Position numbers and translations under genes: made by a program. 64,000 nucleotides of DNA from an uncultured Candidatus Saccharibacteria bacterium (GTDB taxonomy: Bacteria; Patescibacteriota; Minisyncoccia; Phycocordibacterales; UBA918): positions 42,722 through 106,721 of the forward strand of contig CAZMYZ010000001.1 of assembly GCA_964570795.1 (NCBI GenBank), in the 5' to 3' direction. Positions 300 through 38,772 of the stretch are shown here, in pieces. Every line of letters starts with the position of its first letter. Position 1 is the stretch's first letter. The notes below the pieces were generated by a model, which was given only the letters and a program-made list of their open reading frames with translations, had not been told where the DNA came from and did no database searches.

Positions 300-1050
300 C
301 ATTCAATGTTTGGTTTCGTAAACCCAACATAATTACTCGAGAAGAAGTTTTGATGGTGTGGCAGTTCGTCTGTCTGAAATATTCTGAAGATATTTCTCTG
401 TACTCCTTTGCACATCCCCAAGTTTTTCTTGAAATAGTGTTGTGGTGAGTATAGAAGGGAAGTTTCTTTTGCCAAGGTAATCTTGATAACTGCTCCATCG
501 GTACTGAAGAAGATATTCTTGAAGGTGTGAGAATTCCAATCCTTGAGTTATTGAAGAATCTCGAACTCGCCATTCTTGCGCTCCCTCAAGATAGTCGAGT
601 GGGTTGAGGTGTATGTAGTGGAGGATATATAAAAAGTGAGCGTCTGTTTCGATATGAATTTTCTTTGTACGTCCTTGAAATAGAGTACCTTTTCTTTGAT
701 ATCGTTCATTAAAATAATTTGCGTATCCAACATTAAGTTTTCGCATGAAAAGAGAGATACCACCCTCTCTACGCTCTGAGAGAAGTAGATGATAATGATT
801 GTGCATGAGAACCCATGCATGTATATCAACCAAAATCTCACGTTCTTTAATTGTGTTATCAGTAATATCACCAGGACGCCGATTTGATTGTGGTGCTGGG
901 TTTGTATCGTTGAATTCATACATGTCGTGTATAAAACGAACATAATCGCCAGAGCCTTTAAAAAGAGTCCGGCCGTCAACACCCCTGTTCAAAACATGGA
1001 ATAACTCCATATGATACAAGTATACATGTTGGGTTTACGAAACCCAACAT
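300..1050 (-). mobile_element. IS200/IS605-like (RAYT-type) element: Y1 transposase flanked by 25-bp palindromic hairpins
   Basis: tnpA ORF 333..1019 is bracketed by ATGTTTGGTTTCGTAAACCCAACAT (306-330) and ATGTTGGGTTTACGAAACCCAACAT (1025-1049); each is an 11-bp-stem palindrome and the two are mutual inverted repeats with one mismatch. Confidence 0.7.
333..1019 (-). CDS. tnpA: IS200/IS605-family Y1 (HUH) transposase, REP-associated tyrosine transposase-like
   Basis: 228 aa; motifs HAWVLMHNHYHLLL (HuH) and GRTKKIHIETDAHFLYILHYIHLNP (catalytic Tyr region) match the Y1_Tnp/RAYT fold. Confidence 0.8.
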   Translation of the reverse strand: MYHMELFHVLNRGVDGRTLFKGSGDYVRFIHDMYEFNDTNPAPQSNRRPGDITDNTIKEREILVDIHAWVLMHNHYHLLLSERREGGISLFMRKLNVGYANYFNERYQRKGTLFQGRTKKIHIETDAHFLYILHYIHLNPLDYLEGAQEWRVRDSSITQGLEFSHLQEYLLQYRWSSYQDYLGKRNFPSILTTTLFQEKLGDVQRSTEKYLQNISDRRTATPSKLLLE

Positions 1051-1103
1051 GTATACACCCCCACCCGCGACGCCCACTGCTTTGGGGAATGCAAGATTCC
1101 GTA
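1051..1103 (+). repeat. Diverged duplicate of the arsR 3' end (C-terminal 17 codons of a second ArsR-like gene)
   Basis: 242-296 and 1051-1103 align over 53 bp with about 6 mismatches; in frame the second copy encodes YTPTRDAHCFGECKIPY* versus YTLNRDAHCFEECKIPY* at the end of arsR. Confidence 0.6.
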
Positions 1104-1151
1104 TTAGTAATAAATCCTCTATTCCTCGAGGCTCTGCTCTGTGTGTTTGAA

Positions 1152-1373
1152 TCATATTTCCCCCACGACAATTTTCTTTTGTTGTGCAAGGTATTCTTCT
1201 GGAAAGATTCTTTTAAATTGTTCACTTGTCATTTTAGAGGAAAAGTGATGAAAAATTTCTCTATCTTCTTCACTCTCCGTATCCTTTCGTTCATCCCAAT
1301 TATTACCAAACGGTGATAGTAAATTATGGCGACTTTTAAGATATTTTATTCCTAAAAAATAAGTCTCAGTCAT
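1152..1373 (-). CDS. hypothetical small protein
   Basis: 73 aa ORF whose start overlaps the stop of the adjacent ORF (ATGA); no recognisable domain. Confidence 0.3.
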   Translation of the reverse strand: MTETYFLGIKYLKSRHNLLSPFGNNWDERKDTESEEDREIFHHFSSKMTSEQFKRIFPEEYLAQQKKIVVGEI

Positions 1374-1567
1374 AGATTCGGAAAGTCTTTTTCTCTAAAA
1401 TAGGCTGAAATTGTGGATAGGATGAATGCAATAGCAAACCATAACCAACTCCACGCCTGTTTAGAAAAAATAATCAAGATAATATAAAAACCTAATGGGA
1501 TACTTGACCAAAGAAGTAACTCAATCAAAAATTTTTTCTTGAGAAAGTCACAAGTTTCTTTTTTCAT
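1370..1567 (-). CDS. hypothetical small membrane protein
   Basis: 65 aa ORF with two hydrophobic helices. Confidence 0.35.
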   Translation of the reverse strand: MKKETCDFLKKKFLIELLLWSSIPLGFYIILIIFSKQAWSWLWFAIAFILSTISAYFREKDFPNL

Positions 1568-1785
1568 AGTTTTGTCAATTAATTTTTTAAGAATCTAGAC
1601 TAACTTAGAGTTTTATAAACCCCTATAATTATTCTATTATAGCACCGATGTGTTTGAATCTAATGGTCGACATCACAAATGTCGACCATTTTGTTTTGAA
1701 ATAAAACGAGTGGGTGCGTGTATATATACATGTAGCGCTTTTGCAACATAATCGCATTGTGTGGCTACTATTCTTCTTAAATACT

Positions 1786-2022
1786 ATGAAAAAAGATACC
1801 TATCCCGTACTGCTTACCATGAGTGCTCTTGTACTTATGCTTGGAGTGGGTACGTATACGTACCACACGCAATCAGTACAAAAAACAGAACAGGCGTTAG
1901 TAGAGACCACTCCCGTACAAGAAAAGTCTGGTGTGGTGGTGACTACTGATACACAAAAAGTCGCTACCCCATCAACAGCCCAGGTGAAGACTCCGCCGAG
2001 TCGGCAGTCGCAGGCAAGTTAG
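1786..2022 (+). CDS. hypothetical membrane-anchored protein
   Basis: Internal start MKKDTYPVLLTMSALVLMLGVG with an N-terminal TM helix and a T/P/Q-rich tail; an intrinsic terminator follows. Confidence 0.4.
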   Translation: MKKDTYPVLLTMSALVLMLGVGTYTYHTQSVQKTEQALVETTPVQEKSGVVVTTDTQKVATPSTAQVKTPPSRQSQAS

Positions 2023-2025
2023 GTA

Positions 2026-2059
2026 AAATGCGCGGGCCACTTTTGTGGCCCGCGCATTT
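2026..2059. terminator. bidirectional rho-independent terminator
   Basis: AAATGCGCGGGCCAC-TTTT-GTGGCCCGCGCATTT, a 15-bp perfect stem flanked by A/T runs, between convergent genes. Confidence 0.65.
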
Positions 2060-2947
2060 CTATATTCCCATTCTTTGTTTCAATATTTCACCAATGCGTG
2101 CATAGACACTCATATTGTGTGCCAATTCAAAGCCTGCAACTTGAGGTCCTTTGTTAACTTCGAGTACAATCGGACCTTCTGCGGTATGAATCATGTCTAC
2201 TCCCGCAATGTCGATACCGCACACTTGTGCCGCATTACACGCGACATCTTGCTCAGTTTCTGTGAGTATATACACTGAAGGTGTTGCACCTTGAGCAATG
2301 TTGTTGAGGTATCCTTGTGTGCGTGCACGCTTGATAGTTCCTATTATTTCGCCGTATGCGATGAGTGTGCGTGTATCAAATGTGTTTTCAATAAAGGGTT
2401 GCACGAGTGCACGCTCAAACGGTTTTTTCTCTGCGATGCGCTTTTCAAGGTCGGTCTTGTTGGCAACAAAATGAACATTTTTCCCTCTACTGCCATCGGT
2501 TTTGAAGATGAGAGGGAAGGAAAGTGCTGCTTCAAGATACTGACGGTTTGCGCGATATGCTTCTTCCCGAAAGACTATGGTTTCGGGGACGCGAATGCCT
2601 GCAAGGGTGAGTTTGAGCATCTGTGCTATTTTTTCAGCGCTCTGCTCGTATGAGAGACCGATGGGGTCATTTACAGGAATGTTATGGTGTGCAAAATATT
2701 CGTAGAGCATGCCACAAAAAAGTTGGTCAGTACCACGAAGGCGTGTAAAGACATGACTATTAGTCCAATCGATAGGCTTCCCATGATAGAAGAATGTGGG
2801 TATACCATTTTTGATATGGAGTACCATTCTCTTTGTGTGGTACCACGTGTAGGGAGTGTCACCAATACCTGCACGAAATGCATTGCGGTTTTCGGTACCC
2901 ATATTGAGGAAGGTGATATGTTTTGTGTTCGGCATAATACTATGCAT
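2060..2947 (-). CDS. ATP-grasp ligase, RimK/GshB-like (alpha-L-glutamate ligase family)
   Basis: 295 aa; DGSRGKNVHF...GVDMIHTAEGPIVLEVNKGP are ATP-grasp C-terminal motifs characteristic of RimK-type ligases. Confidence 0.7.
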   Translation of the reverse strand: MHSIMPNTKHITFLNMGTENRNAFRAGIGDTPYTWYHTKRMVLHIKNGIPTFFYHGKPIDWTNSHVFTRLRGTDQLFCGMLYEYFAHHNIPVNDPIGLSYEQSAEKIAQMLKLTLAGIRVPETIVFREEAYRANRQYLEAALSFPLIFKTDGSRGKNVHFVANKTDLEKRIAEKKPFERALVQPFIENTFDTRTLIAYGEIIGTIKRARTQGYLNNIAQGATPSVYILTETEQDVACNAAQVCGIDIAGVDMIHTAEGPIVLEVNKGPQVAGFELAHNMSVYARIGEILKQRMGI

Positions 2948-3081
2948 GATAGTCTATATGAAAGAAAGCACAATAGGATTTCTGTACAGAGCGAGTACTT
3001 CGTGGTACAGTTGCCCGCACATAACGGCAAACTATCTCTATTCAATATCTGTGCGACGACATCTATGTTGCATACCTTCTC

Positions 3082-4359
3082 ATGAAAAAACCAGAACGAA
3101 ACATCATTGTGTATGTTGCGGTGTTGCCACCAGGTGCGGTGGAGAGTATTCGTGCCTATGAGAAAAAAGAGAAGCGTAAGTTTAAAGTTATGCTCATCCG
3201 CGATGCGCATGAAGGAAAACAGAAAGAAAAAGAATCATACAAAGGACTTGATATTCTCGTCGAATGTGACCTCAATACGCCTGCACGCATCGCGGAAGCA
3301 CTTGCACCCTACCAAGATCAACTCTGTGCCATTACCTGTCGCTCTGAATCTCATATGGCGCGTTTCATTGAAGTGATTCCTCATGTACCATACCTCCGCA
3401 CTCCTACGACAGAATCACTTGTATGGGCGACCGACAAACTTGAAATGCGTCGCAGGTTTAAACTTCTTGCACCACGCTTTTCGCCAAAGTATGCAGTAGT
3501 AAAAGGTAATACGGTAGGTGAGCGCAAGCGCATTATTGAAAAAATTGGTTTCCCGATGATTGTAAAGCCTACCAATCTTGCACAGAGTCTTTTGGTATCG
3601 CTTTGCTACCATGAAGATGAACTCAAAAAAGCCCTTACGAATCTCAGCAAGAAAATTGCTCAGACGTATGTCGAAAACAAACGCACCGAAGAGCCACGGA
3701 TGATGGTGGAAGAATTTATGGAGGGTGATATGTACTCCGTGGATGCATATGTGAATTCACGTGGTGTGGTGTACTTCTGTCCTATGGTGCGCGTACTCAC
3801 GGGGCACAATATTGGCCATGAGGATTTCTTTAACTACCTCCACATGAGTCCAACAAATTTGAAACCCACATCCATCGAGCGTGCCCACGTTGCTGCAGAA
3901 GCGGGTATTCATGCGCTCGGCCTCCGCAACACCACTGCCCATGTGGAACTTATGAAAGTAGATGATGAGTGGAAAATAATCGAGATTGGTCCACGCGTGG
4001 GCGGCTTCCGCGATAAACTGCATCGTCTCTCGTGCGGCATCGACCATTCACTTAATGATATTCTCGTGCGCATGCCCAAGAAGCCGCATACTCCCAAGAA
4101 ATGCAAGGGTTTTGCAGCAACGCTCAAGTGGTACTCAAAGAAAGAAGGGAAGATTGTGGGGCTTAAGGGTATCAAAAAATGCCAAGAACTCGCGTCTTTT
4201 AATGAAATCAAACTCATTAAGAAAGTGGGTGATATGTGTACTTTTGCTCGTCATGGTGGCAAGGCAGTGTTCACTATTACCCTTTTTAATACCGAACGTT
4301 CTAAACTCCTTGCTGATATTCGGCGTGTAGAAAAACTCATTGAGGTACAGGTGAGGTAG
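3082..4359 (+). CDS. ATP-grasp domain carboxylate-amine ligase (second, larger paralog)
   Basis: 425 aa; GFPMIVKPTNLAQS...MMVEEFMEGDMYSVDAYV...IEIGPRVGG give the ATP-grasp B/C subdomain pattern; divergently transcribed from the RimK-like gene. Confidence 0.65.
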   Translation: MKKPERNIIVYVAVLPPGAVESIRAYEKKEKRKFKVMLIRDAHEGKQKEKESYKGLDILVECDLNTPARIAEALAPYQDQLCAITCRSESHMARFIEVIPHVPYLRTPTTESLVWATDKLEMRRRFKLLAPRFSPKYAVVKGNTVGERKRIIEKIGFPMIVKPTNLAQSLLVSLCYHEDELKKALTNLSKKIAQTYVENKRTEEPRMMVEEFMEGDMYSVDAYVNSRGVVYFCPMVRVLTGHNIGHEDFFNYLHMSPTNLKPTSIERAHVAAEAGIHALGLRNTTAHVELMKVDDEWKIIEIGPRVGGFRDKLHRLSCGIDHSLNDILVRMPKKPHTPKKCKGFAATLKWYSKKEGKIVGLKGIKKCQELASFNEIKLIKKVGDMCTFARHGGKAVFTITLFNTERSKLLADIRRVEKLIEVQVR

Positions 4360-4429
4360 TGAAATAGTGGTGGAGGTACTCACACCCGTGAGGGCGAAGC
4401 CCTCACGGGTGTTGTACTATAGTGGATAC

Positions 4430-4846
4430 ATGCCACGCACCCGCGATTTGCTCATTGTTGTTGCCTCACTCTTCCTCACGTTTTTGGTGTGGGTGATACA
4501 TGTGCTCGTATCTCCTGTTCCCGAAACTAGTAAATCTACACAAGGTACACAGGCCGTCCTTCTCACTACACCAAAGGATTCATACGAAGTAGTACCCTAT
4601 GAGGAAAATTCACTTCGCGATGAGCGTGATGCTTTTATTGATAAGGTGCGGCAAACCTATGTAGCACCAATACAGTTACCTCCAGAGACTGAGGAAGACC
4701 CTTTTGTGTCTGAGTTTGAAACTCCTCCTGCCGTGATGAATCCGGTACCCACAACTACGACTCCGTATATAGTGCCGGTCATTGTGCCGGTAGCGACGAC
4801 GTCTGTCGCTACTACAACGCCTCCCTATGGCAACACTCATCTTTGA
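4430..4846 (+). CDS. hypothetical membrane protein with Pro/Thr-rich C-terminus
   Basis: Internal start MPRTRDLLIVVASLFLTFLVWVIHVL (TM helix) and a PVPTTTTPYIVPVIVPVATTSVATTTPP low-complexity tail; preceded by hairpin 4383-4411. Confidence 0.4.
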   Translation: MPRTRDLLIVVASLFLTFLVWVIHVLVSPVPETSKSTQGTQAVLLTTPKDSYEVVPYEENSLRDERDAFIDKVRQTYVAPIQLPPETEEDPFVSEFETPPAVMNPVPTTTTPYIVPVIVPVATTSVATTTPPYGNTHL

Positions 4847-5552
4847 TATTGAAACGGTCGGTGAGTCGTGGGATACCCTCGACTCCACGACACAAGAAGT
4901 GCTCACCCGCTGGATAGGGCGTACAAGTAAGGACGAACATGAACATGCAGCACTTTTAAAAGATGTGCAAGATGGACTCGGTTTTTCTCCCCTTACCGGT
5001 GAAGTGGTGGCTATTGGGCTCTATGATCTCGAGCGAAGGCAGGGTGTGGTGTATTACCAAGGAGCGGGTGAGATGGATTCTGAAGAAGGAGATTTTATAC
5101 TTAAGTCGCGCAGTGAAAAGGAGATGCTTCAAGATTTTTGGGATGGAGCACAGTCGTATGATACGTTTGTCACTTTTAATGGACGTTGTTTTGACGTACC
5201 TTTTCTCAATCTCCGTTCAGCGATTCAAGGAATTTGTCCAACACAGGATTTAATGGACGGGCGGTATCTCTATCAACAAAAACAAACGCGGCACGTCGAC
5301 CTACAAGACCAAATGACTTTTTATGGTGCGATGCAGCGGCGACCCTCACTTCATCTTTTTTGCCGAGCATTTGGCATAGAGAGTCCAAAGGCGGAGGGAG
5401 TGGCAGGGGATGATGTCGCAGAACTTTTTCGTATGAAAAAGTTCTGCGACATCGCCCGCTACAACGCCCGCGACGTCATCGCCACCACTGCACTCTACAA
5501 AAAGTGGCTTGAATATCTCGCACCTCATAGTTTTCGTAACACTCTTGAGTAG
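4827..5552 (+). CDS. RNase H-like 3'-5' exonuclease related to the PolB exonuclease domain (DNA_pol_B_exo2-like)
   Basis: 241 aa with N-terminal LIFDIETVG acidic motif and downstream FLNL/YNARD motifs typical of DnaQ/PolB-exo-like predicted exonucleases. Confidence 0.55.
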   Translation: MATLIFDIETVGESWDTLDSTTQEVLTRWIGRTSKDEHEHAALLKDVQDGLGFSPLTGEVVAIGLYDLERRQGVVYYQGAGEMDSEEGDFILKSRSEKEMLQDFWDGAQSYDTFVTFNGRCFDVPFLNLRSAIQGICPTQDLMDGRYLYQQKQTRHVDLQDQMTFYGAMQRRPSLHLFCRAFGIESPKAEGVAGDDVAELFRMKKFCDIARYNARDVIATTALYKKWLEYLAPHSFRNTLE

Positions 5553-5605
5553 ACACTCTTTTTATGTTCTAATGTAGTTCGATTTGTACTCCACAGAAGG
5601 AGAGA

Positions 5606-6052
5606 ATGGAAAACTTTGTAAAGCGTGTCCAAAATTGGGTCGACGCTATTGTGCGATTTTTCAAATGGGAATTTTGGTTTCCTATAGGGAAATTGCCGAT
5701 GCATGATGAGGGTGTGATTATCCCGGGTGATCCGGACGCAATTCCACGCTCTGACCCATTTTGGCGAGACCAATGGAAGTGGATTGTGTTCTCTGCACCA
5801 CATCCGGCAGCATTCAGGGTGTACTTTGAGTCTCCCAAGGACGGTCTCTGTATGTGCTACAGCAGAAAGATACGTACTCCGTACGTCGCGATGCGTGTCG
5901 GGCCACATGCGGTCAAGGTTGTTGCGATGGCAGAAATGAGGTACGGCCTTGATGAAATGCGACTTAATATGTTCCTTCCGCCCGAGTATGGAGACTGTAT
6001 GAGGGATGCACTCGCAGAAAGGTTCCTCTTGCACAAGGTGACATGGATATAG
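5606..6052 (+). CDS. hypothetical protein
   Basis: 148 aa ORF preceded by a strong SD (AAGGAGAG, 6 nt spacer) and followed by a terminator; preferred over the overlapping antisense ORF 5525..6070. Confidence 0.45.
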   Translation: MENFVKRVQNWVDAIVRFFKWEFWFPIGKLPMHDEGVIIPGDPDAIPRSDPFWRDQWKWIVFSAPHPAAFRVYFESPKDGLCMCYSRKIRTPYVAMRVGPHAVKVVAMAEMRYGLDEMRLNMFLPPEYGDCMRDALAERFLLHKVTWI

Positions 6053-6070
6053 AGTCCATCTCAAGAACAA

Positions 6071-6100
6071 ACAGCCCAGAACATCGGGCTGTTTTCTTTT
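6071..6100 (+). terminator. rho-independent terminator
   Basis: ACAGCCC...GGGCTGT stem followed by TTTTCTTTT. Confidence 0.55.
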
Positions 6101-6118
6101 GTGCTATAGTTTCTTTAT

Positions 6119-7348
6119 ATGTCAGAACTAAAAAAGTTTCCGGAAGGGTTTTATTGGGGTGCAGCGACCGCTTCGTATCAGGTGGAGGGAGGTATTGAGA
6201 ATACTGATTGGGCTGAGGCAGCGCGCGCGGGGCGTGTGCCTGTGTGCGGCATTGCGTGCGACCACTACCATCGCTATGAAGAAGATTTTGATATTGCGCA
6301 GTCTTTGGGACACAATGCCCACCGTCTCTCCGTAGAGTGGGCGCGTATCGAGCCCGAGGAAGGTAAGTTTAATGAAAAAGAAATCGAGCATTACCGGAAG
6401 GTCCTTACGGCACTCAGGGAACATGGAATGAAGCCGTACGTTACCTTGTGGCACTTTACGTTGCCGACATGGTTTGCAAAAGAAGGTGGCTTTGAACGCG
6501 CAGATGCGCCGCAGGTGTTTGCACGATACTGCGCCTTTGTGGCATCCCGCCTCGGTGACCTCTGTGGAGATTTTTCTACCATGAATGAGCCGAATGTATT
6601 TGGGTCTAATGGCTGGCTCCGCGGCAGTTGGCCACCCTTTAAACGCTTTACCCTCACCGACCTTATTTCGATTACAAACTCTGGTCGCACCTATGAGTCG
6701 CAGGCACAAAAAGGGTTTTCACCCCTTCGACTCTATTTCCGCGTGATGAAAAATCTTGCGAAAGCACATAATCTCGCCTATGACGCTATTAAGAAAGCAT
6801 CGCCAAAAGCAGATGTGAGTGTGGTGAAGCATGTCATTCTTTTCCATGCGAACTGGAATCCAATCAATAAAATGGTTGCGTGGATTGCAAACTACTATTG
6901 GACATATCTCTTTATGGGACGAGTGCACAAAAAGTGTGACTCAATAGGGGTAAATTATTATTTCCATAAAAAGTTTGGAGACAAGAAGGTGTATGTAAAG
7001 ACGGATATGGATTGGGACATCTATCCTGAAGGGCTTGAGGATTCACTCATGATGCTCGCAAAATATGGAAAGCCACTCTTTGTGGCGGAGTCGGGTCTTG
7101 CAGACGAGGCGGATCTCTATCGTGCCGACTACATTACGCGACAAGTACAGGCGATGTGGCGCGCGATGGAACAGGGAGCGGATGTGCGTGGGCATATGTA
7201 TTGGTCACTCCTCGACAACTATGAATGGGCGCTTGGTTTTGAAAAACGTTTCGGGCTCGTGGCAGTGGATTTTATGACACTGAAGCGTACCATACGTCCT
7301 TCTGCGCAGGTGTATAAAGAAATATGCATCAATAATGCGGTACAATAA
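6119..7348 (+). CDS. glycoside hydrolase family 1 beta-glucosidase
   Basis: 409 aa; N-terminal FYWGAATASYQVEGG GH1 signature, TMNEPN acid/base motif and a VAESG nucleophile-region variant. Confidence 0.85.
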   Translation: MSELKKFPEGFYWGAATASYQVEGGIENTDWAEAARAGRVPVCGIACDHYHRYEEDFDIAQSLGHNAHRLSVEWARIEPEEGKFNEKEIEHYRKVLTALREHGMKPYVTLWHFTLPTWFAKEGGFERADAPQVFARYCAFVASRLGDLCGDFSTMNEPNVFGSNGWLRGSWPPFKRFTLTDLISITNSGRTYESQAQKGFSPLRLYFRVMKNLAKAHNLAYDAIKKASPKADVSVVKHVILFHANWNPINKMVAWIANYYWTYLFMGRVHKKCDSIGVNYYFHKKFGDKKVYVKTDMDWDIYPEGLEDSLMMLAKYGKPLFVAESGLADEADLYRADYITRQVQAMWRAMEQGADVRGHMYWSLLDNYEWALGFEKRFGLVAVDFMTLKRTIRPSAQVYKEICINNAVQ

Positions 7349-7379
7349 GGCGATATATGAGACGGTTAATTTCTAGAGC

Positions 7380-8315
7380 ATGAATTGGATTTTTCTTGCA
7401 GTAGGTGCGCAATTCCTCAATGCGTTTGTCGCGCTTGTTGACAAGCATATTGTGAGCGACGAGAAAACACTCCCACGCCCTTTTGTGTATGCATTTTACA
7501 CCTGCCTTATTTCGGGGGTGTGGATTGTGGTGTACTTCATAGGATTCCTTCCGTTTGTTTCTGATTCGCTCCATATCCCTTCGTTCTCAAATGTGATAAA
7601 GCCGACTCTCGAAGTGGTGGCGCTTTCGTTTCTTTCTGCATACACCTTCTTCACGGCGCTTGTGGCGATGTTTAGTGCTCTTCGCGACCATGATGCGTCA
7701 GATGTGGTGCCGGTGATTGGCTCCGTCTCGGCACTCGCGTCATTTGGTATGGGGTATTATTTTTTCAATACCACACTCAGTCATAATTTTATCCTCGGTA
7801 TCATTCTTCTCTCTATCGGTACTTTTTTGGTGTCACGTCTACGCTTTCCTTTCAAAACCGCAATGGTGGCACTCTACTCAGGTATCTTTTTCGCTCTACA
7901 CTACATCACCATTAAAGGGCTTTTTGAAACAACATCATTTGATAATGGGTTCTTTTGGTCGCGCATAGCATTTGTATTCTTTGCGGGGACACTTCTTATG
8001 ATCCCAAATTACTTTGAGCGTATTAAAGAACAAACAAAAACAACAACAAAAGGCACTGCAGTACTGGTGATTGTAAACAAACTACTTGCTGGTGTTTCCA
8101 CGATTCTTATTTTGAAAGCGACGGACCTCGGCGACGTGGCGGTGGTACAAGCACTCGGTGGACTTCAGTTTGTGTTCATTCTGCTTCTCGGTATTTTCTT
8201 TAGTATTCGCCCAACAAAGCTCAATATTGGTGAGACATACAATCACGACACAATCCTCAAGAAAGTGCTTTTTGTGGCTGTTATTACCATCGGTTTTCTA
8301 GTACTATTTAGGTAA
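7380..8315 (+). CDS. DMT-superfamily (EamA-like) membrane transporter
   Basis: 311 aa polytopic protein with about 10 TM helices in two repeated halves. Confidence 0.55.
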   Translation: MNWIFLAVGAQFLNAFVALVDKHIVSDEKTLPRPFVYAFYTCLISGVWIVVYFIGFLPFVSDSLHIPSFSNVIKPTLEVVALSFLSAYTFFTALVAMFSALRDHDASDVVPVIGSVSALASFGMGYYFFNTTLSHNFILGIILLSIGTFLVSRLRFPFKTAMVALYSGIFFALHYITIKGLFETTSFDNGFFWSRIAFVFFAGTLLMIPNYFERIKEQTKTTTKGTAVLVIVNKLLAGVSTILILKATDLGDVAVVQALGGLQFVFILLLGIFFSIRPTKLNIGETYNHDTILKKVLFVAVITIGFLVLFR

Positions 8316-9319
8316 TGAAAAAATGGCTCCTTCGGGCACTTATCGGTGCCGTTGTTTTGTGTGTATGCATATTGGTGGCGCTTTTTATACTTGCACGAAA
8401 AGAAAAACCTGAGCAGATTACCTATGGTATTTCATATAATGTGCCGTACGTGCTTGAACTCGGACTCGACCCCGACGAAGTCTTTGATGCATTTCTTGAG
8501 GAACTTGGTGTGCGCAACTTTCGCATGAGTGCTCATTGGACACTTATTGAGCCGGAGCGCGATGAGTATGACTTTGCATGGATGGATAGGGATATAGCGA
8601 AAGCGGAAGCTGCCGATGCAAAGGTAATTTTTGGTGTAGGTCGGCGGCTTCCGCGATGGCCCGAATGTCATATTCCGGGATGGGCTCAAGAACTCACCTG
8701 GGAAGAGCAAAAGAGTGAGATTCGTGAATACATCACTACGGTGGTAAACCGATATAAAGATTCACCAGCCATCACACATTGGCAGGTGGAGAATGAGCCA
8801 TACCTTGGCTTGTTTGCGCATGATTATTGCGGTGACCTCGACGAATCATTTCTCGAAGAAGAAATTGCGCTCGTGAAATCGCTTGACCCCACACGCCCTA
8901 TACTTGTAACCGACAGTGGCAACTTGGGTACATGGAACGGTGCGTACTCGCACGGAGATTCTTTTGGTACGAGTGTATACGTCTATTTTTGGAATCCGGA
9001 ACTCGGTCAGTTCAAGACGCTTTTGCCACCGTGGTTTTATCGTGCAAAAGAAAATATCATGGCACTCATCCATGGAGAAAAAGAAACATTCCTCATCGAA
9101 CTCTCGCTTGAGCCGTGGCTCCTTGAGCCGGTTACTGAAGTGCCGGTAGACGTACAATACTCACGGATGGACATTCAGAAGTTTAATGAGATTATTGAAT
9201 ATGCGCGCGATACGCGCTACGAAACGCAGTTTCTCTGGGGCGGGGAGTGGTGGTACTGGCTCCGTGAGCGCGGACATGCCGAAATGTGGGAACGCGGCAC
9301 GCAATTATTTAATGAATAA
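8315..9319 (+). CDS. membrane-anchored glycoside hydrolase, clan GH-A (GH5-like)
   Basis: 334 aa with an N-terminal TM anchor and a HWQVENEPY catalytic-acid motif typical of clan A (cellulase/mannanase-like) hydrolases; start overlaps the upstream stop. Confidence 0.55.
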   Translation: MKKWLLRALIGAVVLCVCILVALFILARKEKPEQITYGISYNVPYVLELGLDPDEVFDAFLEELGVRNFRMSAHWTLIEPERDEYDFAWMDRDIAKAEAADAKVIFGVGRRLPRWPECHIPGWAQELTWEEQKSEIREYITTVVNRYKDSPAITHWQVENEPYLGLFAHDYCGDLDESFLEEEIALVKSLDPTRPILVTDSGNLGTWNGAYSHGDSFGTSVYVYFWNPELGQFKTLLPPWFYRAKENIMALIHGEKETFLIELSLEPWLLEPVTEVPVDVQYSRMDIQKFNEIIEYARDTRYETQFLWGGEWWYWLRERGHAEMWERGTQLFNE

Positions 9320-38407: not shown

Positions 38408-38431
38408 TATAAATGTTGTATAATTTGTAAG

Positions 38432-38745
38432 CGTTTGTGATCGCCCTATACGCTTAGGCATATGGGGAGGAAAGTCCGAACACACACCAGGGAAATCCTG
38501 GAAGGGTAGCGGGTAACGCCCGTCGTGGGTGACCATAGCGTTGCGAACAGAAACGACCCGGTTAAGTCCGGCTGAAACGGCTAAATACGTACTTGTGTGC
38601 AAGGCCGTGTCCAGTGAAATAGAGTTGCTTTGCAACTCTTAGTGTTCCGCACATTTCACCAGGAAGTGCCGCATGAGCGCATTGGTAACAATGCGCCTAG
38701 GTAAATGATCACACTGGTTTTCCAGACAGAATTCGGCTTATAGAC
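38432..38745 (+). ncRNA. rnpB: RNase P RNA (reduced bacterial-type)
   Basis: GGAGGAAAGTCCGAACAC (P4 5' strand), GGTAACGCCCG, CTGAAACGG and the 3' ACAGAATTCGGCTTAT (P4 3' strand; consensus ACAGAACCCGGCTTA); 5'/3' ends pair (GCGTTTGT/ACAAAC); about 315 nt. Confidence 0.75.
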
Positions 38746-38772
38746 GTACAAACAGACGCCCCTTCAAGGGGC
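38743..38772 (+). terminator. rho-independent terminator after rnpB
   Basis: ACAGACGCCCC-TTCAA-GGGGCGTCTGT-TTGT. Confidence 0.6.

Follow-up and report, generated by a model that had tools for sequence, protein, structure and literature searches.

What do two ATP-grasp ligases make when they stand back to back in the genome of a CPR bacterium, and do they make it together? Much of bacterial diversity lies in the CPR bacteria, whose tiny genomes encode very little biosynthesis, and a strongly conserved, ATP-consuming ligase in such a genome is therefore likely to be important. The two ligases considered here, lig1 and lig2, are both members of well-known superfamilies and lie in a stretch of 64,000 nucleotides from an uncultured Candidatus Saccharibacteria bacterium, the whole of which is called the window below.

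Organization of the locus

The four open reading frames, the 134-bp spacer between the ligases and the 20-nt overlap of the membrane protein and exonuclease genes, as described in a first-pass annotation, were all located in the sequence (Table 1), and the gene calls for the locus are identical in an independent assembly, L001. The ligases do belong to different families, lig1 matching the RimK domain (PF08443; E 9e-23, 81 bits) and lig2 the ATP-grasp_4 domain (PF13535; E 4e-22). By pattern match, a terminator-like hairpin ahead of the GH1 gene would close a unit running from lig2 through the membrane protein and exonuclease genes to orf148, which is probably its final gene. Searches of orf148 against Pfam, NCBIfam and PADLOC gave no match, and its homologs occur in only 5 loci; the GH1, polytopic membrane protein and GH42-like genes, on the other hand, follow lig2 in 43, 42 and 39 of 80 loci, respectively. 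None of 10 proteins from the window and from the slot genes described below matched the anti-phage defence models of PADLOC.

Table 1. Features of the locus, with positions counted in the window
Feature	Position	Strand	Description
lig1 ORF	2060-2947	minus	295 aa, RimK-like ATP-grasp ligase, '[L/Y/H]-N-N' clade
lig1 promoter-like element	2946-2973	minus	-35 TTGTGC (2973-2968), 16-nt spacer, -10 TATCAT (2951-2946)
lig1/lig2 divergent spacer	2948-3081		134 bp as annotated
lig2 promoter-like element	2983-3011	plus	-35 TGTACA (2983-2988), 17-nt spacer, extended -10 TGGTACAGT (3003-3011)
lig2 leader hairpin	3050-3074	plus	ends 7 nt before start codon
lig2 ORF	3082-4359	plus	425 aa, L-amino-acid-ligase-type ATP-grasp enzyme
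Membrane protein ORF	4367-4846	plus	159 aa, single-pass, Pro/Thr/Val-rich tail
Exonuclease ORF	4827-5552	plus	241 aa, PolB-exonuclease-like, DEDD, RNase H fold, 3'-5'
orf148	5606-6052	plus	148 aa
Terminator-like hairpin	6069-6094	plus	9 bp stem, 5 G-C pairs, U-rich tail; pattern match only
Downstream synteny block (context)	6119-9319	plus	GH1, polytopic membrane protein, GH42-like
GH1 glycosidase	6119-7348	plus	Pfam
Polytopic membrane protein	7380-8315	plus	311 aa; Pfam
GH42-like glycosidase	8315-9319	plus	Pfam

lig2 is an L-amino-acid-ligase-type enzyme

Residues K162, E289, E301 and R305 of lig2 are all invariant and align with the corresponding region of BacD, which places the protein in the ATP-grasp superfamily. 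Its nearest relatives by sequence and by fold, and its best matches by profile and structure, are the L-amino acid ligases BacD/YwfE, BL00235 and RizA, with which it shares the three-domain architecture (ATP-grasp_4 and LAL_C2), including the C-terminal LAL-type subdomain, and the H-x-E...E-x-x-x-R-x-G-G catalytic region; identity to these enzymes is only 14-18 %. L-amino acid ligases form alpha-peptide bonds: a carboxylate is turned into an acyl-phosphate, which reacts with the amino group of a second amino acid. While the known members make dipeptide antibiotics or secondary metabolites in Bacillus and its relatives, lig2 is a core gene across the reduced CPR genomes, has no biosynthetic cluster around it, and is well conserved (mean column identity 58 % over 52 sequences). 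With the BacD equivalog model for alanine-anticapsin ligase, NF053745, it scores 39.2 bits, under the cut-off of 850. A role as D-alanine-D-alanine ligase was considered and set aside (TIGR01205, 28.7 against 245.65 bits), the weak likeness to Ddl being confined to the ATP-binding part.

The first-pass annotation had weighed its reading against a confident placement of both ligases in housekeeping families, with unrelated neighbours in other genomes. The profile-HMM check of the two proteins used the NCBIfam equivalog cut-offs, and none of the housekeeping ones was reached, neither that for Ddl by lig2 nor that for S6-glutamate ligase by lig1 (62 against 331 bits); the neighbours, moreover, are conserved.

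lig1 is a RimK-like protein lacking the arginine belt

In the PDB, lig1 comes closest to the RimK proteins of Pseudomonas and E. coli (E 4e-19 to 4e-16), and the alignment of K149, D251, E263 and N265 with RimK K141, D248, E260 and N262 likewise places it in the ATP-grasp superfamily. R193, R207, N216 and R69 are retained as well. Its scores nevertheless stay under every family cut-off: 102.7 against 143.4 bits for TIGR00768 (RimK family, alpha-L-glutamate ligases), 62.2 against 331 for NF007764 (the S6-glutamate ligase equivalog) and 71.2 against 275.6 for TIGR02144 (LysX/ArgX). The glutathione-synthetase models TIGR01380 and NF003573 gave no match at E <= 0.01. Some lig1 homologs carry weak precomputed matches to PF02955.

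In RimK, an arginine belt (R96, R98 and R102) guides the poly-glutamate and R189 marks the ligation site (PMC10375531; residue roles also from PMC10092738). The R189 equivalent is kept in lig1 as R193, whereas the belt arginines are substituted, as are R211 and R216; the belt positions are occupied by Q102, A104 and A108 and are non-basic throughout the clade. Of 34 clade members, 32-34 retain the catalytic core and the equivalents of R64 and R189, and the clade is coherent over approximately the top 75 representatives at 50 % identity. On these alignments lig1 falls in a small, distinct RimK-like clade with the catalytic core of RimK but without its belt; lacking R211, which is conserved in canonical RimK relatives, it may have unusual chemistry or reduced activity. 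The earlier label of 'RimK/GshB-like' holds for the fold only, as the arginines that handle poly-glutamate are absent.

Several known systems offer partial parallels. With RimABK, which poly-alpha-glutamylates ribosomal protein S6, lig1 shares the fold, the domain and the ATP/Mg residues; rimA and rimB, however, are missing from the locus, rpsF (the S6 gene) is absent from the window, and RimK has no L-amino-acid-ligase-type partner such as lig1 has. Since lig1 is without the poly-glutamate arginines, poly-glutamylation of S6 can no longer be taken as the default expectation. LysX, also of the RimK family, acts on a small carrier protein, to whose C-terminal glutamate it attaches an amino acid. 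In contrast to the LysX/ArgX systems, the window contains no LysW-like ORF, and lysine or arginine biosynthesis genes are absent nearby. Cyanophycin synthetase, CphA, fuses an N domain, an ATP-grasp G domain and a Mur-ligase-like M domain, and the likeness lies in two different ATP-dependent ligase modules building one peptide product; here, however, the modules are separate genes and the window holds no homolog of the M domain. Neither ligase rises above noise as a CphA homolog, as TIGR02068 needs 850 bits, lig1 scores 17.3 and lig2 does not match.

Pairing of the two ligases across genomes

A comparison across relatives, proposed in the first-pass annotation, found lig1-type genes beside lig2 in nearly every locus with enough flank (32 of 39, five of the seven exceptions lacking the relevant flank), and in several arrangements. 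The two genes are divergent in 29 loci; in L120, L121, L123 and the P0374 contig lig2 is followed by lig1 on the same strand with gaps of 1-10 nt, which suggest co-translation; and in L122 lig1 precedes lig2, again on one strand. In L121 the pair interrupts the S10 ribosomal-protein operon: L2 lies on one side of it and S19 on the other, and 5 nt separate the ligase genes. The outer flank of lig1 also changes among loci while lig2 stays put. Because adjacency outlasts changes of orientation, order and surroundings, these gene-order data support a functional coupling of lig1 and lig2.

The coupling is not symmetrical. Most of the 78 species-level loci have lig2 without lig1, so lig1 is dispensable for the core role of lig2. 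The dependence is one-way: lig2 is the CPR-wide core, and elsewhere other ligases or a peptidase take the place of its accessory partner, lig1. The pairing is no accident of one genome. Conversely, in L095 and L097, of one lineage, and in the more distant L108, the flank available around a lig1-type gene contains no lig2.

It is worth asking whether the ligases are functionally unlinked and their adjacency simply inherited in slowly rearranging genomes. CPR genomes are strongly syntenic, adjacency among close relatives is in part shared ancestry, and only five loci or contigs are rearranged. Across Paceibacteria, synteny extends from DsbA through the GH42-like gene and takes in genes, such as the exonuclease and GH1, for which a connection with ligation is implausible; in many genomes lig2 is alone, and none of the long representatives proved to be a lig2-lig1 fusion. 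We nevertheless consider this explanation very unlikely in view of the rearranged pairs, their short same-strand gaps and the shifting outer flank of lig1, and inherited order alone is insufficient to account for the recurrence of at least four other amide-ligase families at the same position. In a milder form, lig1 and lig2 could act on different molecules and share merely regulation.

A variable slot beside lig2

The position next to lig2 behaves as a slot, filled in 48 of the 66 loci with enough flank and holding a further amide ligase in 35 of them. In other lineages its contents include RimK paralogs, stand-alone homologs of the CphA G and M domains (beside lig2 in other Paceibacteria), a second copy of lig2 and a MATCAP/QEGLA carboxypeptidase. 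This turnover suggests a common scaffold that is extended or trimmed lineage by lineage. The MATCAP/QEGLA zinc peptidase adjoins lig2 in nine of the 66 loci (PF08014, 85 bits; TIGR02421, 80 bits) and carries the motif HEIKTH; the zinc site of MATCAP is an HExxxH motif. A methyltransferase and a zinc peptidase also occur near lig2 in other lineages, and DsbA lies upstream of the pair in other lineages.

The peptidase invites comparison with systems in which residues are added and removed. An ATP-grasp ligase and a MATCAP-family zinc carboxypeptidase, side by side in the nine loci, recall tubulin tyrosine ligase and the MATCAP detyrosinase, and a ligase with a trimming peptidase parallels RimK with RimB. 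By analogy, the ligases might act on a macromolecule, as RimK does on S6 or tubulin tyrosine ligase on tubulin, with the carboxypeptidase of other lineages stripping the added residues. Where RimK-family enzymes have been characterised on macromolecules, they modify protein C-termini (S6, LysW), lig1 retains the arginine responsible for binding the terminal carboxylate (PMC10375531), and the placement of the L121 pair among ribosomal-protein genes would fit; we regard this reading as possible, though rather unlikely. Unlikely, too, is its fuller form, a CPR system that writes and erases amino-acid tails on a protein, possibly a ribosomal component, with lig2 as the universal writer, lig1 and the RimK-like or CphA-like enzymes as lineage-specific writers and the MATCAP-type carboxypeptidase as the eraser. 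If true, it would be a bacterial counterpart of the tubulin tyrosination/glutamylation cycle, and the insertion of the pair in the S10 operon of one lineage would reflect its target.

A core ligase with lineage-variable companions also recalls Gram-positive bacteria, among which the composition of the cross-bridge differs, and the enterococcal D-aspartate ligase is an ATP-grasp enzyme that adds such a side-chain or cross-bridge amino acid to a peptidoglycan precursor. In a cell-wall tailoring role, lig2 would catalyse an addition of this kind, and lig1 and the variable ligases would diversify the bridge. The flanks have an envelope flavour (the upstream DsbA of other lineages; downstream, a membrane-anchored secreted protein, glycosidases and the polytopic membrane protein), and the cl9 family shows a very weak resemblance to FemAB/GNAT (E about 0.14). 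The resemblance to FemAB falls short of significance, however; no mur, ddl or fem genes lie near the pair in the window; apart from the weak Ddl similarity, lig2 has no cell-wall ligase match in NCBIfam; and the Mur-ligase-like neighbour of other lineages scores 206 bits with the CphA M domain against 98 with MurE. We therefore give cell-wall tailoring little credence.

Finally, CPR graspetide clusters have been described (Makarova et al., 2022), as have CPR-specific ATP-grasp branches accompanied by zincin peptidases and methyltransferases (PMC8939145), and the methyltransferase and zinc peptidase noted above bring them to mind. Maturation of a graspetide or other RiPP, with a small precursor peptide cross-linked by one of the ligases or by both, is extremely improbable here; the search found no MdnB/MdnC-type ligase beside a precursor with a Thr/Ser...Asp/Glu core.

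A proposed function

With their folds, intact catalytic residues and conserved pairing in hand, the ligases can be assigned a working role. That the locus is a two-enzyme peptide-ligation module specific to CPR bacteria is, judging from the sequences, about an even call, and the most likely activity would be successive ATP-dependent peptide ligations on one substrate. In the core step, an acyl-phosphate formed by lig2 would be coupled to a second amino acid in alpha-peptide linkage. Most likely, lig1 would then extend the C-terminal carboxylate of the lig2 product, or of a common substrate, by one or a few residues, with R193 holding that carboxylate at the acyl-phosphate site. As lig1 is without the positively charged belt of RimK, it would more likely make short, non-processive additions than long tails of poly-glutamate. 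Conserved promoter-like elements, placed back to back, would drive the two genes in opposite directions. We infer which enzyme acts first, the alpha-linkage and the type of product, be it a free oligopeptide or a protein tail.

The comparison provides several handles: a core enzyme (lig2), an accessory partner (lig1) that has stayed with it through several rearrangements, and one slot in which enzymes that make or trim peptide bonds are swapped. Identification of the substrate should bring to light a new product of these symbionts, a small peptide metabolite or polymer, or else a new protein modification; if the clue from the ribosomal operon is sound, the translation machinery could be what is modified. 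Further, lig1 and lig2 are small and soluble-looking, and should be easy subjects for work in vitro.

Downstream genes and the shared spacer

The membrane protein has one hydrophobic segment (LLIVVASLFLTFLVWVIHVLV) and the tail PVPTTTTPYIVPVIVPVATT quoted in the first-pass annotation, but it is a remnant and not an intact gene. Its match (E 2e-7) to the HMM of a ~265 aa family that follows lig2 in 40 loci is limited to the N-terminal part, and it lacks the Cys-rich, weakly YHYH-like C-terminal domain of that family; by this comparison it is a truncated ortholog of the conserved gene after lig2. Its true start is probably M22 (ATG at 4430), as the MxRTRD N-terminus of the orthologs matches there. 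The nuclease was correctly recognised as PolB-exo-like with an RNase H fold (PF10108 DNA_pol_B_exo2, E 7.5e-22, 78.5 bits; PF13482 RNase_H_2, 53.8 bits) and contains the motifs FDIET, NGxxFD and YNARD. Found downstream of lig2 in 36-40 of 80 loci, it is a conserved syntenic neighbour with no evident tie to ligation, and both it and the membrane protein stand outside the ligation chemistry.

The divergent promoter region suggested earlier finds support in promoter-like elements conserved on both strands. The true start of lig1 is probably its fifth codon, the ATG at 2935 (291 aa), because the family consensus begins there and the conserved -10 overlaps the first ATG; the spacer would then measure 146 bp. 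As a sequence pattern, a -10 ending 10 nt before this ATG implies a leaderless or nearly leaderless mRNA, and the arrangement TTGT[GA]C, 16-17 nt, TAT[CG]AT, 6-10 nt, ATG recurs in L001, L003-L006, L009 and L090-L092. For lig2, a generic scan for promoters over the wider region yielded a number of sites within chance (19 against 13.2 +/- 3.1), so the case rests on conservation: the complete TGTACA-17-TGGTA[CT]AGT element is common to the window, L001 and L003-L005, with GTATAGT in 12 and CTGTACA in 9 of 21 spacers. The leader hairpin of lig2, which matches no Rfam family, is followed by a pyrimidine-rich stretch, and a Shine-Dalgarno sequence is absent; the final 75 nt of the leader fold at -13.3 kcal/mol (z -2.1). 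A hairpin with another stem sequence occupies the equivalent position in L003-L006, L010, L014 and L089.

Enzyme classes of the ligase pair

Within the divergent ATP-grasp pair, lig2 encodes an L-amino-acid-ligase-type enzyme. In NCBIfam it comes closest to PRK02186, over the ATP-grasp part (63 bits against a cut-off of 625), and to BacD (39 bits, cut-off 850), while Ddl scores 28.7 bits (cut-off 245.65). Further, a profile built from 20 lig2 orthologs and searched against PDB sequences retrieves BacD (2e-13), 4dim (misnamed) and BL00235, with Ddl at just 1e-5. The lig2 motif H287-x-E289 ... E301-I-G-P-R305-V-G-G308 aligns to H-T-E ... E-S-A-A-R-F-A-G of BacD and is invariant in 52 sequences, at identities down to 40 %. 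These 52 sequences, including distant CPR homologs, gave a predicted structure with pLDDT 89 and pTM 0.88, which replaced an unusable model from 20 close homologs alone (pLDDT 53). The lig2 family is large and CPR-wide, each search returning more than 1000 relatives, on contigs of 0.4-0.9 Mb and many with LAL_C2 matches. JGI labels of the homologs (among them 'S-sulfo-L-cysteine synthase', 'biotin carboxylase' and 'NCAIR synthetase') were judged to be automatic mislabels.

The partner, lig1, scores 102.7 bits against the RimK subfamily (cut-off 143.4), 62 bits against the S6-glutamate ligase equivalog (cut-off 331) and 71 bits against LysX (cut-off 275.6). Since both ligases stay below every quoted NCBIfam cut-off, the housekeeping identity that the first-pass annotation had named as the outcome that would overturn its reading was not found. 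Among solved structures, lig1 comes closest to RimK of Pseudomonas and of E. coli (E 4e-19 to 4e-16). According to published work on RimK (PMC10375531, PMC10092738), R189, which LysX and tubulin tyrosine ligase share, anchors the C-terminal carboxylate where ligation takes place. The incoming glutamate is bound by R64, and a positively charged belt of R96, R98 and R102 steers the poly-glutamate chain. An alignment of lig1 with 33 relatives shows no variation at the counterparts of K141, R189, R203, N213, D248, E260 and N262, and 32 of the 34 sequences keep that of R64. In the same set the belt residues are replaced by Q/N, A and A/S, the R211 equivalent is L or H, and the R216 equivalent is Q or K. 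An exhaustive search of 1.84 billion representatives found the '[L/Y/H]-N-N' signature across roughly the top 75 matches, beyond which RimK relatives with the canonical arginine predominate. On sequence grounds, lig1 and its relatives form a distinct RimK-like clade. With the catalytic residues and the R189 equivalent kept and the belt replaced, lig1 would be catalytically active and would bind a terminal carboxylate, but would be unsuited to processive poly-glutamylation.

Two related loci encode proteins of ~600 aa (L068:7083-8906 and L073:8121-9893) in which a lig1-type RimK-like domain is followed by a ~300 aa C-terminal domain; these C-terminal domains match only each other and, weakly, DUF3541 (E 1e-4).

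Pairing of lig1 and lig2

A survey of lig2 relatives, restricted to one genome per species, yielded 78 loci at 41-86 % identity. High-scoring lig1 orthologs are limited to part of a Kaiserbacteria-like clade, each of them divergent from lig2, and lig2 occurs without lig1 in many other lineages. The more informative survey started from lig1-type genes. At 44-46 % identity these still sit between a DsbA-like gene and lig2, facing lig2, and the same holds in an independent metagenome sample. Far more divergent members of the lig1 clade still adjoin a verified lig2 ortholog in other arrangements: lig2 precedes lig1 on the same strand with gaps of 1-10 nt in two related loci (L120, L123) and on the P0374 contig, a further relative, and lig1 precedes lig2 on the same strand in another locus (L122); in L121 the surroundings differ as well, the pair lying in a ribosomal-protein operon. 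The co-occurrence across relatives that the first-pass annotation had proposed to look for is thus seen in several arrangements, with lig2 adjacent in 32 of 39 lig1-type loci by a uniform tally and the relevant flank absent in five of the seven exceptions. In the lineage of L095 and L097, RNase J occupies the place of lig2 beside the lig1-type gene. A Rosetta-stone search found no lig2-lig1 fusion, the long representatives all being tandem RimK-RimK proteins. Merely inherited synteny is a less likely account of the adjacency. Because the adjacency persists through altered orientation, order and surroundings, there is good comparative evidence that the two genes share a function, and the one-way dependence identifies lig1 as accessory to lig2.

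Many of the contigs with this locus (L004-L006, L052, L055, L072 and others) carry the public labels 'uncultured Candidatus Saccharibacteria', 'Gammaproteobacteria' or 'Magnetospirillaceae'. Such labels on CPR-type loci look unreliable, as gene content and synteny match Paceibacteria.

The downstream block and the variable position beside lig2

Clustering of all neighbours of lig2 in the surveyed loci revealed a conserved block. In 40 loci lig2 is followed by a membrane-anchored protein of ~265 aa that has a Cys-rich domain weakly resembling YHYH. Further downstream genes encode the exonuclease (36-40 loci), a GH1 protein (43), a membrane protein of 311 aa (42) and a GH42-like protein (39).

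On the other side, the content of the interval between the conserved DsbA-like gene and lig2 depends on the lineage (related loci L003-L080; for example L040:7064-9889, L026:8866-9819 and L069:4584-5891). Found there are lig1-type genes and two other subfamilies of RimK-like genes, which keep the canonical arginine. Cyanophycin synthetase is represented by stand-alone homologs of its G domain or of its M domain (the latter aligning to CphA residues 480-849 with 206 bits). Other occupants are an additional lig2 copy, a zinc carboxypeptidase of the MATCAP/QEGLA type and a ~249 aa protein family that we call cl9; in some lineages the interval is empty. When the count is limited to the 66 loci whose upstream flank extends 3 kb or more, the position is occupied by one or more of these genes in 48, and 35 include one or more further amide ligases. 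The recurring theme of these genes is the making or trimming of peptide bonds.

Some lineages have a second gene of the lig2 family (L057:6142-8779, L022:4338-5573, L030:6553-7788), placed in tandem with the first or, on the other strand, adjoining a CphA-G-like gene. The cl9 family (L040:9140-9889, minus strand, and 15 other loci; alignment A3) stands directly beside lig2 in 16 of the 66 loci and often adjoins a MATCAP-type peptidase. It has a conserved motif, HG.DRNPYG.NS.IGLA.FKLS.G, and lacks a signal peptide. No significant match to cl9 was found in Pfam, NCBIfam, PADLOC or PDB sequences, where FemAB/GNAT hints reached only E ~0.14.

A proposed two-enzyme peptide-ligation module

The best-supported explanation is that the locus is a two-enzyme peptide-ligation module, as the two-step ligation of the first-pass annotation had anticipated. 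The observations comprise the folds, the catalytic residues and the pairing; we infer in which order the enzymes act, what linkage they make and what kind of product results. In this reading, lig2 would form a first amide bond in the manner of L-amino-acid ligases, and lig1 would next add one or a few residues to the C-terminal carboxylate of the lig2 product or of a shared substrate.

The main rival is that the pair modifies the tail of a protein, possibly a ribosomal component. Such a role is suggested by the chemistry of the RimK family, by the MATCAP neighbour of lig2 and by a locus on a 145,756-bp contig (L121:2650-6110; Logan SRR28892620) in which lig2 and a lig1-type gene are inserted among the ribosomal-protein genes of the S10 operon, with rplB (L2) and rpsS (S19) on either side. 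The RimK-like gene there actually starts at ATG 4836, 5 nt past the lig2 stop. This insertion may indicate a ribosomal target or only strong expression, and none of the flanking ribosomal proteins has an acidic C-terminal tail. However, lig2 is close to ligases of free amino acids, lig1 is missing the basic belt, and there is no acidic-tailed candidate substrate nearby; when the window was screened for S6, Ddl, a LysW-like carrier and small ORFs with an acidic C-terminus close to the pair, nothing relevant emerged. If a protein of the translation apparatus were nevertheless the substrate, the module would be of greater interest.

Tailoring of cell-wall peptides by the pair is less likely than peptide ligation by the module, and so is maturation of a graspetide by the two ligases (cf. 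PMC8939145), a reading that was tested and rejected. A defence-island reading was likewise set aside, PADLOC giving no match for any of the 10 proteins scanned, from the window and from the variable position.

The superfamilies of both enzymes are well known. In literature searches on ATP-grasp/RimK in CPR, Patescibacteria or Parcubacteria, on DUF1704/MATCAP with ATP-grasp, and on RimK with L-amino acid ligase, neither the pair nor the variable position was described. What is new is a CPR-wide family of the L-amino-acid-ligase type, an arginine-poor RimK-like clade linked to it, and an exchangeable set of ligases together with a peptidase at a single position beside lig2.

Regulatory sequence patterns

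Common promoter-like elements occur on both strands in the 21 spacers of related loci. Since sites from a generic sigma-70 scan were not above chance, the promoter assignments are made from cross-species conservation only. The TATCAT of lig1 ends 10 nt ahead of ATG 2935, the family consensus start, which predicts a leaderless or near-leaderless lig1 mRNA. The predicted lig2 leader is ~64-70 nt long and contains a hairpin, followed by a pyrimidine-rich stretch without a Shine-Dalgarno sequence. Several relatives have hairpins of differing sequence at the same place before lig2, some with U-runs after them, and the element may be an attenuator or translational control element. An Rfam scan of 1000-6500 gave only chance-level microRNA matches, so no riboswitch was detected in that interval.

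Features of the window around the ligase pair (window positions)
Feature	Position	Strand	Remarks
ArsR/SmtB-type HTH ORF	12-296	plus	94 aa; HTH_5, 30 bits
Transposase-like ORF	333-1019	minus	228 aa; Pfam 28 bits; NCBIfam NF047646 39 bits, under cut-off 80
Three small ORFs	976-1567	minus	not conserved in related loci
Hairpin	1662-1690		perfect 12-bp palindrome (AATGGTCGACAT...ATGTCGACCATT) with T-runs
Thr/Pro/Gln-rich ORF	1786-2022	plus	small, membrane-anchored; 78 aa as called in L001
lig1	2060-2947	minus	295 aa
lig1 promoter-like element	2973-2968, 2951-2946	minus	TTGTGC, 16 nt, TATCAT; conserved in relatives' spacers
lig2 promoter-like element	2983-2988, 3003-3011	plus	TGTACA, 17 nt, TGGTACAGT; conserved in relatives' spacers
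lig2 leader hairpin	3050-3074		fold pattern; ends 7 nt ahead of start codon
lig2	3082-4359	plus	425 aa
159 aa ORF	4367-4846	plus	
Exonuclease ORF	4827-5552	plus	241 aa; 20-nt overlap with 159 aa ORF
Terminator-like hairpin	6069-6094		pattern match; after a 148 aa ORF
RNase P RNA, class A	38424-38756		bacterial; 122.9 bits, modestly over gathering score 100
Six tRNA genes	35.9-61.6 kb		dispersed

Gene content of the window

The ORF list bears out the four genes of the first-pass annotation, the 134-bp spacer between the ligases and the overlapping start of the nuclease ORF, and the gene order is identical in an independent assembly (L001). The membrane protein of the first-pass annotation is present as an ORF, but the 159 aa product, for which a domain search gave no match, is by its alignment a truncated ortholog of the ~265 aa membrane-anchored family, since it matches only the N-terminal part. 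Given its RNase P RNA and tRNA genes, the window is chromosomal. Where homologs are named, they are from Candidatus Kaiserbacteria, Paceibacterota and other Patescibacteria.

The Thr/Pro/Gln-rich ORF is convergent with lig1, their stop codons separated by 37 nt; it has homologs in three loci only and lacks a graspetide core signature. The hairpin at 1662-1690 lies between convergent small genes and looks like a two-way terminator. The 228 aa ORF, which the three small ORFs follow, looks like a transposase of the REP-associated tyrosine type (IS200-like Y1 transposase). Finally, the ArsR/SmtB-type ORF runs antisense across the 5' end of the anaerobic ribonucleotide reductase gene in the gene calls of the matching assembly (L001:844-3342), and one of these two gene models is probably too long.
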